Assembly: GCA_021777765.1 (NCBI GenBank)
Contig: JAJYDF010000001.1
Coordinates: forward strand, 13,151 to 77,150
Source of the DNA: Pseudomonadota bacterium
GTDB taxonomy: Bacteria; Pseudomonadota; Gammaproteobacteria; DASZBR01
Length of the DNA stretch: 64,000 nt
Direction of reading: 5' to 3'
Shown here piece after piece: positions 48,001 through 60,000 of this stretch (the first letter of the stretch is position 1; the number at the start of each line of letters is the position of its first letter). A program made the position numbers.

Positions 48001-51000
48001 TAAGGAAGTGTCTGAAGGTACAGCGAGTATTATTGATCAAGAAGTCCGTGCAATTATTGATCGAAATTATCATCGTGCAATGCAATTATTGAAAGATAAT
48101 TTAGATAAATTACACATGATGGCACAAGCATTAATTAAATATGAAACCATAGATAGTGATCAAATCGATTCTATTATGAGCGGTAAAGAACCTGGTCCTC
48201 CTAAGGATTGGGCAACCGACGATAAATCCCAACGGAAATTTACGCAAGTTGATGGCGCACCCATAGTACCCAATGTTACTACTGAACCTAATCCGGGCGT
48301 AACCCAACAAGGCGCGACCGGCAAGGATTCATAAAGAATGTCCATAGAAAAAAAATATTTTGGTACAGATGGTATCCGTGGTCGCGTCGGTGAATATCCT
48401 ATTACTGCAGAATTTGTATTAAAACTGGGCTGGGCAGTTGGCCGGGTTTTAGTAGGTAAAGGTGGCAGTAACAAAGTCCTCATTGGTAAAGACACCAGAA
48501 TCTCCGGTTATATGTTCGAATCAGCATTAGAAGCTGGTTTATCTTCTGCTGGCGTTGATATTCATCTATTAGGGCCCATGCCTACTCCAGCAATTGCCTA
48601 TCTCACCCGGACGCAACGTGCCCAAGCTGGGATTGTGATTAGCGCATCACATAATCCTTATTTCGATAACGGCATTAAATTTTTTTCTGATCAAGGCACT
48701 AAATTGCCAGATGAATTAGAAATTGCCATTGAAAAACAGTTAGAAGAACCGATGACTACGGTAGATTCTGCAAAATTAGGCCGTGCAACGCGTATTGTTG
48801 ATGCGCCAGGACGCTATATTGAATTTTGTAAAAGCACGCTACCTTCACAGGTTACTTTAAAAGGCTTAAAAATTATTGTTGATTGTGCCAATGGCGCAAC
48901 GTATCACATTGCTCCCGATGTTTTTCGTGAATTAGGTGCTGAAGTGCTAGAAATTTCAGTGAATCCTGATGGTTTTAATATTAACGAGAATTGTGGCTCG
49001 ACCAAACCCAACGTATTACAAAAAATCGTTTTAGCAGAACAAGCTGATTTAGGCATCGCATTAGATGGGGATGGTGATCGCGTGATCATGGTCGATCATA
49101 CTGGTGTCGTGGTTGATGGCGACGAACTGTTATTTATTATTGCAAAACATTGCTTAGCAACTGGCCGAATGCAAGGTGGCGTAGTAGGCACTGAAATGAG
49201 TAATTTAGGATTGGAATTGTCGTTAAGACAACTGGGTATTGATTTTATTCGCGCTAAAGTGGGCGATAGACATGTTCTTTCCGAGCTAAAGAAATTGGGT
49301 TGGTTACTCGGCGGTGAAACTTCAGGACATGTTGTTTGGTTAAGTGCTACAACTACTGGTGACGGTATTATTTCGGCCTTGCAAGTATTGGCATCAATAT
49401 ATCACACCGGTTTATCGTTACATATTTTGAAACAAGGTATGATGAAATATCCACAAGTAATGCTTAATCTCCCATTAAATGGTGATGACGACATATTACA
49501 ACGCCCTCAGGTCCAAACCGCAGTAAGAGAAGCAAGAGAAGTATTAAATGGCAAAGGAAGAGTGTTATTGCGACCTTCAGGAACTGAACCTTTATTGCGC
49601 ATTATGGTTGAAGGTGAGGATCAAATGCAGGTTAAACAATTAGCACAATCTTTGGCTGATAAAATTCAGAGTTTTATTTAAGTCAGAATCCCATCGCTGT
49701 TAAATATTCCATTAGCAATAATTTTTTTCCTTCTCCCGCTAGCGGGAGAAGGTGCCGAAGGCGGATGAGGGTGGTTTGATTTACAGAAACGTAATTAATT
49801 TAAATGTTTATTGAATTCATATGAAAAGATGCAGCTGGTGTAACGAAAATCCTTTATATATTACATACCATGATAATGAATGGGGCATCCCCTTACATGA
49901 TGATCAAAAATTATTCGAATTATTAATGTTAGAAGGAATGCAAGCGGGATTAAGTTGGTTGACAATTCTCAAAAAGCGAGAAAATTTCCGCAAAGCGTTT
50001 GATAAATTTGATGCCAAGAAAATTGCGCGATATGACATTAAAAAAATAAATATGTTACTCAATGACACAGGCATCATTCGCAATCGTTTGAAAATTGCAG
50101 CAGTTATCAATAATGCACGCGCTTATTTAGAAATTTTAGAAGAAAGACAAAAATTCAATAAATATATTTGGCAGTTCGCACCAGACAATAAAAAAATACG
50201 ATCATCAACTCATCAAATTATCACGAGAACATCAGAATCAGATGCTATGTCTAAAGATTTACAAAAGCGTGGTTTTAAATTCGTAGGTACTACGATTTGT
50301 TATGCTTTTATGCAAGCATCTGGTATGGTAAACGATCACGAAGAAGAATGTTTCAAGTATCAGAATTGATTTACTTGCGTACCATTTTCACGCAAGCTCT
50401 CATAAATTCATTTTTATAAGCAATTTCACAATTACGAGGATACTTACGCCATTTTTGCATTACAGGATCGTCTGCCAATGCAACTGCTGAAGGAATTAAT
50501 TCACCATATTTATCTTTGTCAGCATGATAAAAAGAATAATTAATGTGTGTTAATTTTGAAAATGCAGTGTCTATTAAATTAATATCATTTTGTGAAATAA
50601 GTTGAATTAATTGATTAAGTAAATATTTAGTATCGCGTGTATTGTCGATAATACTGCTTGACGTTTCAGGTTTAATTCTGGATGTAGGCGTTCCTGGCAT
50701 TTGCATGGGAATATAAAACGGGCGTTTCAATTTTTCATTAAAAATTTCAGGCACCATAATGATGGGCGCGTGTTTTTTTAAGCCATAAATATCCATGAAA
50801 ATAGATGTAAGAGAATTAAAAGGTCCGGCAGTTTCGTCGTTGTCAAAAGGCGCATATACTATTTCTTGATTTAAACTGGCTTCGATAATATATCGCACCA
50901 TTGATAATACGAATCGGTTTACTTTTTTGTTTCTAATATCATTGATAAATAAATCCCAAATTTGATTCATGGTTGCGATATTTCTGGCATAAGCGGATCT

Positions 51001-57000: not shown

Positions 57001-60000
57001 AAAGGAATATGGTATTTCTACTGCGCATCAGAAAGATGAAGGTCAGGATAAAGAATTATTACCATCTAATGAGAGTTTACCATTATTGCCGAGAAATAAG
57101 TGATTTAACAATATCAGTTTAAATTAATTTTGAATCTTTTTAAAGGTAGCTTATGGACAGTATATCAATTATTGAATTTGATAAAGAATATATGAAATTT
57201 TCTTCAGGCCATTTTACAATATTCTCTAATGAGAAACGAGAAAAATTGCATGGACATAATTTTAGAGTTTACGTTTCATTTAAAATTATTTTAAATAATA
57301 ATAGTAATGGCTTAAATTATGATTATCGTATTTATAAAGATAAGATTTACAATATTTGTCAACAATTAGATGAATCATTTTTATTGCCATCTAAATCAAA
57401 ATATCTACATTTAGAATCAGACGGTGAATATCTCTATGCTTTTTTTAATAAAGAGAAAATTCCTTTCTTAAAAAAAGATGTTGTTATTTTGCCAATTGAA
57501 AATATAACCGTGGAAGAACTTTCAAGATGGTTTGTTGAGGCGCTAATTAAAGATGATGAGTATTTGAATAACAAAGAAGTGAGAGAAGTAATGGTTAGAA
57601 TATCATCAACGCCTGGCCAGTCCGGTGCTTCAACATGGATTAATCAATAATGGAAAACTTTGTAATTATCACAGGGGCAAGTAAGGGCATTGGTAGAAGT
57701 ATCGCTAATACATTTTCACTTCAAAATTGGAAAGTTATCAATATTTCCAGAACCCCGTGCGATATGGCGTGTGTGAATTTTATAGCGGATATATCATTCA
57801 TAGGTTGGGAAAAAGAATTAAATAATAATATTAACAATTTAATTTCTAATCCAAATAAAATTTGCCTAGTTCACAATGCTGCCAGATATGAAAAAGATAC
57901 AGTGCATAAATTGGATGTGGAAAAGTATAGAAATACAATTATGGTGAATTTAATTTCACCATCAATCCTAAATCAGATCATATTACCGATTATGGAGAAG
58001 GGATCTTCTATTATTTACATAGGCTCAACATTATCGAGCAAAGCTGTAAAAGGTTCTTTTTCTTATGTTACTACTAAACATGCTTGTGTGGGCATGATGA
58101 AAGCAACCTGCCAGGATTTAGATGGTACGGGTATACATACAGCTTGCGTATGCCCTGGATTTACTGATACTAAAATGTTACTAAATCATTTAAATCATGA
58201 TCATAATAAGCTAGAGCAGATAAAAAATAGCTCAACTGCAAAACGACTTATAGAGCCACAAGAAATTGCGGAATTGGTATTATATTGCGCAACTCATCCA
58301 GTAATTAATGGCTCTGTTATACATGCAAATTTAGGACAAATTGAATATTAATTTAACTGATGAAAAATAGAGAGAATCCATTCATAAATAACAGATAAAA
58401 CACATAAATGGAGCGGTATCATGCCATAATGGTCAAATCGATTTAAAGAGTGATTAAAAGTGTGCCTAGAGTTATCAAGCCAACATGTTATGAACAAACC
58501 TAAAGTTGTGGGCGATTTTATTATTATTGTTATATTTCGCAAAACACATTTTTTATTTTAATTTTACTTTAGCATTAACATGGTCATTGATTTGCCAGCA
58601 TTTCGATTTTGTCTAGGCACGCTTTTAATCACTCAATAAAAATTTTTAACCGGATGTGTTGACGCTTTTACAAAGACAAACTTTACAATATAAGCTAAAA
58701 ATTTTATGAAATGCTGCAGAACGTGGTTCTTTGGTGATTCCTGTTCGTAAGCGTCGTAAGGTAATTAAAGGAATTTGTGTTTCTGTGGAAATTCTTGTCA
58801 TAGTATATCCTGAGCATTTCATTATTTCTTGTAATAAAGATTGACACGTTGTGTAAAATCGCTTGCTACTGAGTGTTGGTTTTTTGTGTTGTTGGTTTTG
58901 TTCGAGTATATCAATATGATTTTCTGCGATGGGTGTTAAATTGGAATATGGTTGTTGCATAGCTATTTAGCCCTTTTATTTTTGTTAAAATTATTTTGTT
59001 GTTATGGCTAATCAAATGATTTAGCACAAAATTAAAGTCTCTCAATTATTTCATCAGCGTACGACGCTAAATTAACAAAACATAAATTATGTGTCAACAC
59101 ATAAATTAATTATTTTTTTATGTTTCAACGAATAAAATTGTGAGATAATTGCCCATGCCCCTGATCATTTAATGCTTGTAAGAATAAGCTGTGATAAATT
59201 ATTCCGGGTAAAATTATAACGAGATTGGCAATGAATAAATTAGCGAAAGTTTTAAATCAATTAATGAAAGAACAAGATTTGACCGTGTCAGAATTGGCGC
59301 GTCGAACGGGGGTAGGTCAACCTGTAATCCATCGCGTTCTTTCAGGCGAAACTGATAATCCTAAGGTAACTACCTTAAGTCCCATCGCTGATTTTTTTGC
59401 CGTTTCTATTGGTCAGCTGCTCGGTAATGAACCAATTCCAAAAGATCGCATTAGTGGTACATTTCGTATAACTTCACATGGTTGGACAACAATCCCATTA
59501 CTCAATTGGGAGCAAGTTATCAATTGGCCAGTGAAAAAAGAATCATTAAATATAGAAAAACAGGAATCAACTGAAATGGCCGTGAGCAAAGATGCTTATG
59601 CGCTGCGTGTGAAAGATACAACGATGTTACCGCGATTCCCTGAAAATACATTATTAATTGTTGATCCACTATTGCAGCCAAACGATCGTGATTTTGTGAT
59701 TGCGCATATTTTTGGACAAAAACAAGCATTATTTAGGCAATTTTTATTAAATGGTGATGATATTTATTTAAAACCGCTTAACGCTGATTTTAATATGCAG
59801 ATGATAGATAAAAAATCAAAGATACTGGGTGTTATGGTACAAGCACGAATGGATTTTAAATAAATTTATTTCTCCATTAATGTATCTTTAAACCATTCAC
59901 ACGCTGCTTGCGAAGCGATTGCAAATTCTTCCCAATACGCAGAAAAATGATCCCCTGTTAATTTAATTAAATTTTTTGGTGGTTGCATTTGATCAAAACA

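Follow-up and report, generated by a model that had tools for sequence, protein, structure and literature searches.

An island of 8.09 kb in the stretch of DNA analysed here (64,000 nucleotides, called the window) carries six genes that, as judged from their sequences, probably form a small pathway centred on an amino-acid oxidase dependent on non-haem iron and a tetrahydropterin, in which the pterin would serve as a cofactor. The probability of this reading is put at about 0.62. The most likely product of the cluster is a modified amino acid or dipeptide that is secreted. A cluster of a predicted HEIGH-motif oxidase with its own pterin enzymes, ligase and exporter is an undescribed combination; a reading made earlier from the sequence only had not recognised it as a described pathway, and none was found in the literature. 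The features are given in Table 1.

Table 1. Features of the island and its borders in the window
Feature	Position	Strand	Basis or remark
tag	49821-50369		PF03352 match; at the left island border
Variable island, 8.09 kb	50354..58445	.	Contains the 460-aa ORF and the six-gene cluster
460-aa ORF, seventh island gene, divergent from the cluster, lineage-specific	50371..51753	-	
Divergent intergenic region, 321 bp, AT-rich, presumed promoters	51754..52074	.	Read from sequence
ATP-grasp ligase, L-amino-acid-ligase (Lal) type	52075..53418	+	Pfam ATP-grasp_4, 33.9 bits
EamA/DMT transporter, presumed exporter	53441..54388	+	Pfam EamA, 91 bits, two stretches
PolE-like HExxH protein, 374 aa, predicted oxidase of amino acids dependent on Fe(II) and a tetrahydropterin	54466..55590	+	Profile homology
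Polytopic membrane protein, 494 aa, accessory	55619..57103	+	Hydrophobic segments
PTPS-family T-fold enzyme, PTPS-III signature ExxHGH (REKLHGHN)	57153..57650	+	Pfam PTPS PF01242, 50.6 bits
SDR reductase of the classical type, in translational coupling with PTPS, predicted to reduce a pterin side chain or ring	57650..58351	+	Pfam adh_short, adh_short_C2
Inverted repeat with arms of 40 nt, at the right-hand junction but outside the island	58431..58651	.	Also in L031
CI/LexA-like repressor	59225-59863		Outside the island; conserved in island-less L031

The island is defined by its absence from a relative, L031, with approximately 80% nucleotide identity to the window across ftsH-glmM. The two are collinear over 45279-50353 and 58446-61393, and in place of 50354-58445 the relative has 18 bp, with tag on one side and the conserved inverted repeat on the other. 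An island had been proposed before, with its right end at 59900 and with a MITE-like element and a CI-like repressor as termini. The island itself is confirmed by this comparison, but it ends near 58445. The inverted repeat is present in a single copy within the window, so that the name MITE-like is at most tentative, and it recurs at the corresponding position in L031 with 84% conservation; the repressor and a 104-aa ORF beyond the island are conserved there as well, and these three features are therefore not island ends. The segment was probably moved horizontally, as the earlier reading suggested. A search for a tRNA, an integrase or a transposase gave none. The description "extremely AT-rich" overstates a difference of 30.1% against 34.7% GC in the remaining window. 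The island is the lowest-GC 8.1-kb stretch in the 64 kb (range 30.0-39.5%). Equally low 1-kb bins occur elsewhere (29.0-29.7% at 2-3, 5-6, 7-8 and 62-63 kb), and the contrast is sharp only against the dnaK-ftsH-glmM block, with 35-43% GC.

The six ORFs share a strand; 22, 77, 28 and 49 bp separate successive genes up to PTPS, and the last two overlap by 1 base. The co-directional, tightly spaced operon of the sequence-only reading stands in coordinates, strand and spacing, as one functionally linked cluster. Its calls of ATP-grasp_4, EamA, PTPS and classical SDR domains, and of tag, were upheld. In public gene calls the EamA gene starts at 53444 (314 aa). The membrane protein, earlier read as having ten transmembrane segments, has about 10-11 moderately hydrophobic segments compared to 1-2 in soluble controls, and no Pfam match at E<=10. 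Its in-cluster homologues were seen only in Legionellales-like loci, L017 from a Legionellales MAG (44%) and L032 (48%). For the 460-aa protein there was no Pfam match even at E<=10, no NCBIfam match and no meaningful PDB match; among the fetched loci its ORF occurs only in those carrying the same window sequence. A promoter scan of the divergent intergenic region did not rise above shuffled background, and the region had no Rfam match.

The nature of the pathway depends on the 374-aa protein, to which the earlier reading gave no function, in which the HEIGH motif occupies residues 183-187 and for which the AF2 model has a pLDDT of 94.4. No Pfam, NCBIfam or PDB sequence match was found for this protein, and none to Pfam DUF6421. 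When a profile of the HEIGH family was run against 1.84 billion representatives, however, Pfam-verified DUF6421 proteins were recovered, one of which (P0327) matches SnPolE with an E of 1e-15. Alignment of the HEIGH family with DUF6421 by hhalign gave a profile-profile probability of 99.6% and an E of 1e-23, with H183, H187, E214, D218, R245 and D262 placed on DUF6421 invariants, that is, the metal triad and flanking Asp/Arg. PolE (DUF6421, PF19985; PDB 9j2e, 9j3g) is the L-isoleucine desaturase of the polyoxin pathway, shown experimentally to depend on Fe2+, O2 and tetrahydrobiopterin (BH4) and to be stimulated by dihydropteridine reductase (PMC12614342). It has in common with the HEIGH protein a DPP-III-derived fold, a size of about 370 aa, the metal motif HE/DxxH...E(xxx)D, aligned downstream (Q/E)RLF(W/R)(F/Y) and Asp positions, and adjacent genes for amino-acid modification or ligation.

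The two proteins differ in several respects. Identity is only about 12-14%, the HEIGH protein falls below the Pfam DUF6421 threshold, and there was no direct HMM match to PolE. The spacing from His to Glu is 26 residues in the window protein and 24-26 across the HEIGH family, compared to the reported 21-23 in DUF6421. The remoteness of the homology and this spacing count against a cofactor pathway. Hosts of the HEIGH family are Proteobacteria, Bdellovibrionota and Myxococcota, whereas those of the PolE family are mainly Actinobacteria. The island is without a PolF-type partner; what it does have, and the PolE paper does not report, are genes of its own for pterin synthesis and an exporter of the EamA type. 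The HEIGH family is a sister family to DUF6421, and its island member is a remote homologue of PolE; since PolE uses a tetrahydropterin, the pterin of the island is best read as a cofactor, not a scaffold.

The enzymes that would supply this cofactor are the PTPS and the SDR, whose genes share base 57650 (ATGA) at stop and start. In the PTPS, H20, H33 and H35 are invariant in 11 of 11 sequences, and E30 is kept in 10 of 10 family members and differs in E. coli QueD. Plasmodium PTPS structures give the best PDB matches (2a0s, 1y13; E 7e-18), and the active-site Glu lines up in them. The SDR has TGASKGIG and YVTTK motifs, its PDB matches are generic FabG-like enzymes, and nothing in it points specifically to sepiapterin reductase, PTR1 or FolM; in every case, within the cluster or away from it, the SDR has a PTPS partner. 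The pair does indicate pterin chemistry, as suggested earlier. In bacteria, the FolX/FolM route leads to tetrahydromonapterin for PhhA. The route to BH4 through GTP cyclohydrolase I, PTPS and sepiapterin reductase combines, as the island does, a PTPS-family enzyme with an SDR. As in these routes, two related loci, in Allofrancisella guangzhouensis (CP010427.1) and the metagenomic contig L043, have GTP cyclohydrolase I as well, directly after the gene for the predicted pterin-dependent oxygenase. Unlike those of the BH4 and FolM routes, the island SDR is not recognisable as sepiapterin reductase or FolM, and the PTPS has the Glu-type PTPS-III motif rather than the Cys-type of PTPS-II. Among the loci with annotated neighbours, none showed a pterin-4a-carbinolamine dehydratase. 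The signature ExxHGH is that of folate-type PTPS-III (PMC5041015), and the Plasmodium enzyme with the same Glu makes 6-hydroxymethyl-dihydropterin; the folate-type rather than BH4-type motif, the unspecific SDR and the missing dehydratase all count against the cofactor pathway. 6-Hydroxymethyl-tetrahydropterin may take the place of BH4 as the native pterin.

About 28 distinct HEIGH loci from distant bacteria were compared, with adjacency counted in the first 18. Every locus has the HEIGH protein, and most have EamA and the ligase as well; the EamA and ligase genes adjoin the HEIGH gene in 14 and 10 of the 18, respectively. Exporters of the EamA, MatE, MFS or RND type recur around it, together with one to three ATP-grasp ligases, and an NADPH-dependent FMN reductase lies within the cluster in L023 and L043. 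PTPS and SDR are in only about 7-8 of the roughly 28 loci, flanking the HEIGH gene in the window, L011, L016, L019, L023, L042 and L043, and partly in L032. Their absence from most clusters, where the core genes remain, fits cofactor supply, not a scaffold.

It is unlikely that two unrelated modules lie side by side here, namely a housekeeping PTPS-III (with SDR) serving folate or the phenylalanine-hydroxylase cofactor, and the HEIGH, ligase and EamA genes. The PTPS-III bypass of FolB in folate synthesis, as with Plasmodium PTPS, shares ExxHGH and the three conserved zinc-binding His with the island enzyme (PMC2229834, PMC5041015). Homologous PTPS-SDR pairs also occur in housekeeping contexts away from any HEIGH gene (L007/L008), L009 has a solitary PTPS, and the window PTPS is closer to these (~50% identity) than to the PTPS of other clusters (31-44%). 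The existence of such pairs counts against the cofactor pathway as well. In contrast to the FolB bypass, the island PTPS is paired with an SDR, which folate synthesis does not need, in a secondary-metabolite-like setting with no folK or folP nearby, and both genes lie within the same 8-kb indel as the rest of the cluster. PTPS and SDR accompany the HEIGH gene in at least seven loci, in at least five gene orders and in different bacterial orders of Gamma- and Betaproteobacteria. Since PTPS is, we assume, roughly one gene per genome, we estimate that repeated adjacency by chance is negligible. Identities fall in parallel across loci (PTPS 46/42/36/35%, HEIGH 45/47/38/37%), which fits co-inheritance.

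The ligase bears on what the pathway makes. In structure and sequence it comes closest to dipeptide-forming Lals, with L-amino acid ligase BL00235 first among PDB sequences (3vot, E 2e-6), BacD far weaker (E ~0.4) and a faint match to DdaF. It is 36% identical to the ligase of the Pseudomonas Pht island, which by gene order is PhtU; phtU of the phaseolotoxin cluster is genetically needed for Ala-homoarginine. The EamA protein has seven strong hydrophobic segments. That an amide-forming ligase and an exporter belong to one system, as first proposed, agrees with the Lal-type matches and with the recurrence of both beside the HEIGH gene. Clusters for bacilysin (BacD), rhizocticin (RizA), dapdiamide (DdaF) and phaseolotoxin (PhtU/PhtQ), which yield di- or tripeptide antimetabolites, likewise unite a Lal-type ATP-grasp enzyme, tailoring oxidoreductases and a dedicated exporter, here presumed. 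In the island the tailoring enzyme is instead a predicted PolE-like oxidase with its own pterin supply, and the island lacks the remaining biosynthetic genes of those pathways.

The product foreseen earlier, a conjugated or exported pterin or 7-deazapurine, fares less well. No queE or queC is present, and 7-deazapurine is therefore not indicated. A pterin, or a 6-carboxy- or hydroxymethyl-pterin, built by PTPS and SDR, joined by the ligase to an amine or amino acid and exported by EamA is quite unlikely. Non-amino-acid carboxylates can be activated by ATP-grasp enzymes, and the full route of GTP cyclohydrolase I, PTPS and SDR in the Allofrancisella and L043 clusters is more than a recycled cofactor seems to need. 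Pepteridines are pterin-containing natural products of a Photorhabdus cluster, a hybrid of NRPS-like and pteridine-synthase genes, in which, as in the island, pterin genes stand in a secondary-metabolite setting (PMC5384830). There the pterin is the product scaffold and an NRPS-like enzyme takes part, whereas the island has no NRPS, and in most related loci HEIGH, EamA and frequently the ligase are retained although the neighbourhood is free of pterin genes. The nearest relatives of the ligase join two amino acids. 6-Carboxy-tetrahydropterin comes from enzymes with the Cys-type QueD motif, and the motif of the island PTPS is of the Glu type. A pterin product also leaves the constant HEIGH protein, a homologue of a pterin-consuming oxidase, unexplained.

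Improbable to much the same degree is a short DPP-III-like zinc metallopeptidase that would mature, recycle or detoxify a ligase-made peptide, with PTPS and SDR as unrelated neighbours. An HExxH motif with a Glu further along the chain is the arrangement known classically from zincins, and peptidases stand beside some HEIGH-family members (M20 in L038, Met-zincin in L024). Even with a cut-off of E<=1, however, none of 35 family members matches the Pfam family for DPP III, while DUF6421 is reached by profile, and the length of the HEIGH protein, about 370 aa, is that of PolE rather than the 520-720 aa of DPP III. TM-scores normalised to the target were 0.60-0.62 for PolE and 0.31-0.45 for DPP III. 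There is no invariant downstream His to serve as the DPP III catalytic His, one member has HDxGH, which is allowed in DUF6421 and rare in peptidases, and the recurrent linkage to pterin genes would go unexplained. An Fe(II)/2-oxoglutarate-dependent rather than pterin-dependent HExxH oxygenase is most improbable: the DUF6421 motif resembles recently described alpha-KG HExxH oxygenases (PMC12614342) and the family-conserved R239 and R245 could bind a 2-oxo acid, but the equivalent Arg is invariant in DUF6421 too (R286 in A4), yet PolE is pterin-dependent, and the in-cluster pterin biosynthesis genes favour pterin.

For the tetrahydropterin-dependent oxidase pathway, we infer every step from homology and gene linkage. 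Housekeeping GTP cyclohydrolase I, encoded outside the window, would provide dihydroneopterin triphosphate, from which the PTPS-III-type enzyme would form 6-hydroxymethyl-dihydropterin and/or 6-pyruvoyl-tetrahydropterin. The coupled SDR would reduce this product to a tetrahydropterin and/or recycle the oxidised pterin. The PolE-like protein would bind Fe(II) through H183, H187 and E214 and, with O2 and the tetrahydropterin as co-substrates, would introduce a double bond or a hydroxyl group into a free amino acid. The Lal-type enzyme would then join the unusual amino acid to a second one, giving a dipeptide, and the EamA transporter, if it works in the assumed direction, would export the product, which is likely to be used as a secreted antimetabolite or signal.

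The six plus-strand genes of the island are best read, at a probability of roughly 0.6, as a pathway that would combine tetrahydropterin supply, PolE-like amino-acid oxidation, dipeptide formation by an L-amino acid ligase (Lal) and export through EamA. The PTPS and the SDR would make and/or recycle a tetrahydropterin, on which the PolE-like enzyme, called here the HEIGH protein after its motif, would draw, along with Fe(II) and O2, in modifying an amino acid. A dipeptide would be built by the Lal and exported through the EamA protein. Homology, conserved motifs, linkage of the genes and polymorphism of the island are what the data show; the chemistry at each step, the identity of the substrate, which way transport runs and the role in ecology are inferred.

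All six ORFs called in the sequence-only reading were recovered at their coordinates, on one strand, separated by 22-77 bp except where PTPS and SDR overlap in ATGA, and Pfam and NCBIfam bore out the ATP-grasp, EamA, PTPS and SDR domains. The HEIGH protein, the divergent 460-aa ORF and the 494-aa membrane protein went unmatched in both collections, and the latter two also had no match in Pfam (E ≤ 10) or the PDB. By crude hydropathy the 494-aa protein has about 10-11 hydrophobic segments. The identical locus is present in several metagenome assemblies and one MAG.

The mean GC content of the window is 34.1%; in 1-kb bins the dnaK-ftsH-glmM block (40-50 kb) lies at 35-43%, and between 50 and 59 kb bins fall to 27.8-32.3%. 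The island as a whole, at 30.1% against 34.7% in the remaining window, is the lowest 8.1-kb stretch of the window. The drop that had been described as an extremely AT-rich island is real, but it is modest, and individual 1-kb bins outside the island reach equally low values. The comparison with a relative that had been proposed as a check could be made with L031, a locus lacking the 8.09-kb segment. Its GlmM is more than 90% identical to that of the window, and its gene order runs ftsJ-ftsH-glmM-tag and on through a 106-aa ORF to genes for a CI-like repressor, for a hydrolase and for a Sel1 protein; no island genes lie between tag and the 106-aa ORF. By blastn it is collinear with window positions 45279-50353 and 58446-61393, with 18 bp in place of the segment. 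Since collinearity holds on both sides, the island consists of the 460-aa ORF and the six genes.

The CI-like repressor and the MITE-like element, taken in the sequence-only reading for the end of the island, lie outside it, together with a 104-aa ORF, and all are conserved in L031. The repressor was thus rejected as an island member, and the MITE was rejected because the inverted repeat is single-copy in the window and kept in the island-less relative. The repeat coincides exactly with the right junction of the island, a short way downstream of the minus-strand 104-aa ORF; it is 84% conserved in L031 and may act as a long terminator hairpin or as a hot spot of recombination. The repressor, a CI/LexA-like protein with HTH and S24 peptidase domains, is conserved (71%) in L031 together with its neighbours, and resembles a resident regulator more than a leftover of a prophage or island. 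No integrase, transposase or tRNA is present (no tRNA genes in 45-64 kb), so the window-L031 pair alone fits insertion and deletion alike. Rfam matched no family over 50-60 kb, hence no THF or preQ1 riboswitch. The promoter scan was uninformative in AT-rich DNA (43 promoter-like sites, 50.7 expected), as was the terminator scan, whose sites fell mostly inside genes. Synteny with L031 breaks a second time after the Sel1-repeat gene. Beyond this break the window has a 395-aa protein without assigned function and a glyoxalase, and L031 has genes with Condensation plus acetyltransferase, DAO, cupin and Lys/Orn N-oxygenase domains, suggestive of a siderophore pathway. The ftsH of L031 is called as two ORFs (515 and 132 aa), probably through a frameshift or an assembly error.

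Positions of features in the window and in related loci, and occurrence of gene families beside the HEIGH gene in the first 18 loci
Feature	Position	Detail
Island	50354-58445	
Divergent 460-aa ORF	50371-51753	minus strand
Six-gene run	52075-58351	plus strand
HEIGH gene	54466-55590	18/18 loci (the gene itself)
EamA next to HEIGH		14/18 loci
Window-type ATP-grasp next to HEIGH		10/18 loci
PTPS + SDR next to HEIGH		5/18 loci
494-aa membrane protein next to HEIGH		2/18 loci, Legionellales-like only
Inverted repeat	58431-58651 (L031 6024-6216)	40-nt arms, 80% complementary, 141 nt between
CI/LexA-like repressor	59225-59863	
Second synteny break	61393 onward (L031 9027 onward)	
Split ftsH	L031 1954-3899	
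Vut_1 gene	L007/L008 7163-7948	
FMN reductase	L023 5807-6397	
FMN reductase	L043 10668-11262	
LuxI-type synthase	L019 9260-9898	
Full-length ligase region	L042 10858-13775	

The best matches of the window PTPS are Plasmodium PTPS structures, with the active-site Glu aligned. The PTPS-III signature ExxHGH is present as REKLHGHN, without the Cys motifs of QueD or PTPS-II, and RE-xLHGHN is found in 10 of 10 aligned family members. The Plasmodium enzyme with this Glu gives 6-hydroxymethyl-dihydropterin and a second product in comparable amounts. On the QueD model TIGR03367 the window protein scores 42.8 bits against a cut-off of 89.25, Lys occupies the position of the QueD Cys (CxxxHGH), and the island holds neither queC nor queE. 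On these three counts a queuosine or 7-deazapurine pathway was rejected, and with it the 7-deazapurine-like product suggested earlier. The SDR has TGxxxGxG and YxxxK; it matches best to generic FabG or glucose-dehydrogenase types, with no SR, PTR1 or FolM model among its top matches, and by these matches is a classical but generic SDR. Homologous PTPS and SDR pairs also exist with no HEIGH gene nearby, so the pair fits a general tetrahydropterin-supply module. In one genome with such a standalone pair (L007/L008), the divergent neighbour is a Vut_1 gene (YhhQ-type queuosine-precursor transporter).

Loci were drawn from genomes, metagenomes and exact look-up and scanned with the window proteins, and the neighbouring ORFs were clustered. 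Among the first 18 loci no further gene family clearly recurred beside HEIGH. With later loci included, PTPS and SDR are found beside it in the window, L011, L016, L019, L023, L042 and L043, and partly in L032, in at least five different gene orders. A search of the window with the Allofrancisella GTP cyclohydrolase I found no such gene. Two loci are the most telling: Allofrancisella guangzhouensis (L042, CP010427.1, about 691.7-697.4 kb) has, in this order, PTPS, SDR, HEIGH, GTP cyclohydrolase I, ATP-grasp and EamA, and L043 has PTPS, SDR, HEIGH, GTP cyclohydrolase I, FMN reductase, ATP-grasp and EamA. With the whole route from GTP to tetrahydropterin encoded around it, the PolE-like gene has there the neighbours that a pterin-dependent oxygenase would require. 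Two of the pterin-containing clusters, L023 and L043, include an NADPH-dependent FMN reductase (split into two ORFs in L043), a candidate regenerator of oxidised pterin. In L019 (Chitinimonas sp. BJB300) a LuxI-type autoinducer synthase lies directly upstream, on the same strand, of a HEIGH-EamA-PTPS-SDR-ligase operon, which hints at quorum-sensing control. The HEIGH homologue of L011 (GCA_035546635.1) bears the label "Patescibacteria group bacterium" in one record, and for a member of its 90%-identity cluster another record gives "Gammaproteobacteria bacterium"; the Patescibacteria label looks like a binning or taxonomy error.

These neighbourhoods bear on two other explanations. A folate-type PTPS-III module could lie next to the HEIGH gene by accident, but this is unlikely, as the co-localisation repeats in shuffled gene orders and the indel is shared with the other genes. 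A pterin could instead be the scaffold of the product, in line with the pterin-like exported metabolite first suggested for this DNA. We consider this quite improbable: the pterin genes are optional across loci, and the HEIGH protein would be left without a role.

The HEIGH family is small, with 66 matches in a database of 5.8 billion sequences and, at 50% identity, 114 clusters in a set of 1.84 billion representatives; all members with a source name are labelled "hypothetical". Among its hosts are Legionellales MAGs, single MAGs of Alteromonadaceae, Burkholderiales and Rickettsiaceae, many Bdellovibrionota, A. guangzhouensis, Chitinimonas and Archangium gephyra. H183, G186, H187, E214, D218, W242, F243, R245, D260 and D262 are invariant. 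At the sequence level the window protein found nothing in Pfam, NCBIfam, a phmmer search of the PDB or a PDB search with the family HMM, and thus did not reach the gathering score of PF19985 (DUF6421); weak DUF6421 matches occur in 3 of 35 relatives (best E 0.022). The link to PolE was made through an intermediate. Searching with the HEIGH-family profile brings up proteins that pass the gathering score of PF19985, at 37-84 bits; one of them, the DUF6421 protein P0327, matches SnPolE at E 1.2e-15. Aligned with hhalign, the HEIGH family and DUF6421 give a probability of 99.6% (E 1.1e-23, 217 columns), pairing FHEIGHRVG with lHDxxHxxG, GELSTD with EELRVD and QRLFWF with ERLFRY. The invariant H183-E-I-G-H187 and E214 align to the DUF6421 triad, with a His-to-Glu spacing of 26 in the window protein and 24-26 across the family, against a published range of 21-23 (PMC12614342). 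Because of the profile retrieval, the P0327-SnPolE match and the core alignment, the HEIGH protein is, at the profile level, a divergent sister of DUF6421 that retains the metal and cofactor core.

PolE was described in 2025 as an Fe2+-, O2- and BH4-dependent L-isoleucine desaturase with the motif HE/DxxH-x(21-23)-E and a DPP-III-like fold, without the HExxGH motif and catalytic His of DPP III, and it is stimulated by dihydropteridine reductase (PMC12614342). A confident AlphaFold model of the HEIGH protein from 35 family sequences (pLDDT 94.4, pTM 0.91) likewise shows a DPP-III-like fold, at about 370 aa. Foldseek assigns PolE and short DPP III similar E-values; normalised to the target, the TM-score reaches 0.60-0.62 with PolE and 0.31-0.45 with DPP III. 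A DPP-III-like peptidase is improbable, with size, motif, profile homology and pterin linkage all counting against it. DPP III (M49) has an HExxGH hexapeptide, a catalytic His further along and at least 520 aa, whereas the HEIGH protein has a pentapeptide and 374 aa; no His is invariant beyond those of the motif, no member has an M49 Pfam match at E ≤ 1, and only the fold is in common. That its HExxH belongs to a 2-oxoglutarate-dependent oxygenase is very improbable indeed. The HEIGH protein is predicted to be an Fe(II)/O2/tetrahydropterin amino-acid oxidase; the evidence for this activity, all of it indirect, is linkage to PTPS, SDR, GTP cyclohydrolase I and FMN reductase.

The closest relatives of the window ATP-grasp are characterised Lals. 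It is 36% identical to a ligase of the Pseudomonas phaseolotoxin (Pht) island, which from gene order we take to be PhtU, and phtU is genetically required for Ala-homoarginine. From this identity and the genetics of phtU we infer that the window ligase would join two free L-amino acids with ATP. The 365-aa gene beside the Pseudomonas ligase proved unrelated to HEIGH. The exporter matches PF00892 in two stretches (91.2 bits) and has seven strong hydrophobic segments, as in a two-repeat polytopic protein. Related clusters vary: L023 combines as many as three ATP-grasp ligases with exporters of the RND and MFS types, L025 has an additional circularly permuted ATP-grasp, and L038 an M20 peptidase, Ldh_2 and MatE. 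The scheme that recurs would have an amino acid oxidised, ligated in some cases, and then exported. In L042 the full-length ligase (421 aa, weak LAL_C2 match) is of another ATP-grasp family than the window's, and a 233-aa ORF after EamA, whose match to the window-type ligase (37%) is confined to the C-terminal half, may be a truncated ligase remnant. Next come MFS, aminotransferase, HMGL-like and Iso_dh genes, whose products might provide a homologated amino acid.

A more specific joint reading is tentative, with odds well short of even. The HEIGH proteins would form a second, unrecognised family of Fe(II)/pterin amino-acid oxidases, PTPS-III and SDR would provide the cofactor, and a new oxidised dipeptide would be secreted as an antimetabolite or signal directed at hosts or competitors. 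The minimal PTPS-III and SDR route would possibly yield 6-hydroxymethyl-tetrahydropterin rather than biopterin. The host lineages here are Legionellales-like bacteria, Francisellaceae, Rickettsiaceae, Bdellovibrionota and Myxococcota, and many known lineages among them live inside or prey upon other cells.

The PolE-like oxidase, PTPS-III, SDR, Lal and EamA are each of an already known kind, and a limited literature search found no described pathway that combines them. The predicted oxidase is, by its profile scores, outside the Pfam family that defines the relatives of PolE. It was not until 2025 that Fe/pterin chemistry was demonstrated beyond the aromatic amino-acid hydroxylases, in PolE, and then solely with BH4 supplied in vitro. 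The cluster is independent genomic evidence tying the PolE-type fold to pterin: a sister family, diverged beyond the reach of the Pfam model, comes time and again with its own PTPS and SDR, and sometimes GTP cyclohydrolase I. It also cautions annotators against taking every ExxHGH "PTPS-III" for a folate enzyme. The compact five-gene unit of oxidase, ligase, exporter and two cofactor genes could be expressed in E. coli to seek a new unusual amino acid or dipeptide, and A. guangzhouensis, a cultured host with a complete genome, is usable for genetics. The linked pterin genes point to a native cofactor route and would extend this enzyme class to Gram-negative bacteria.
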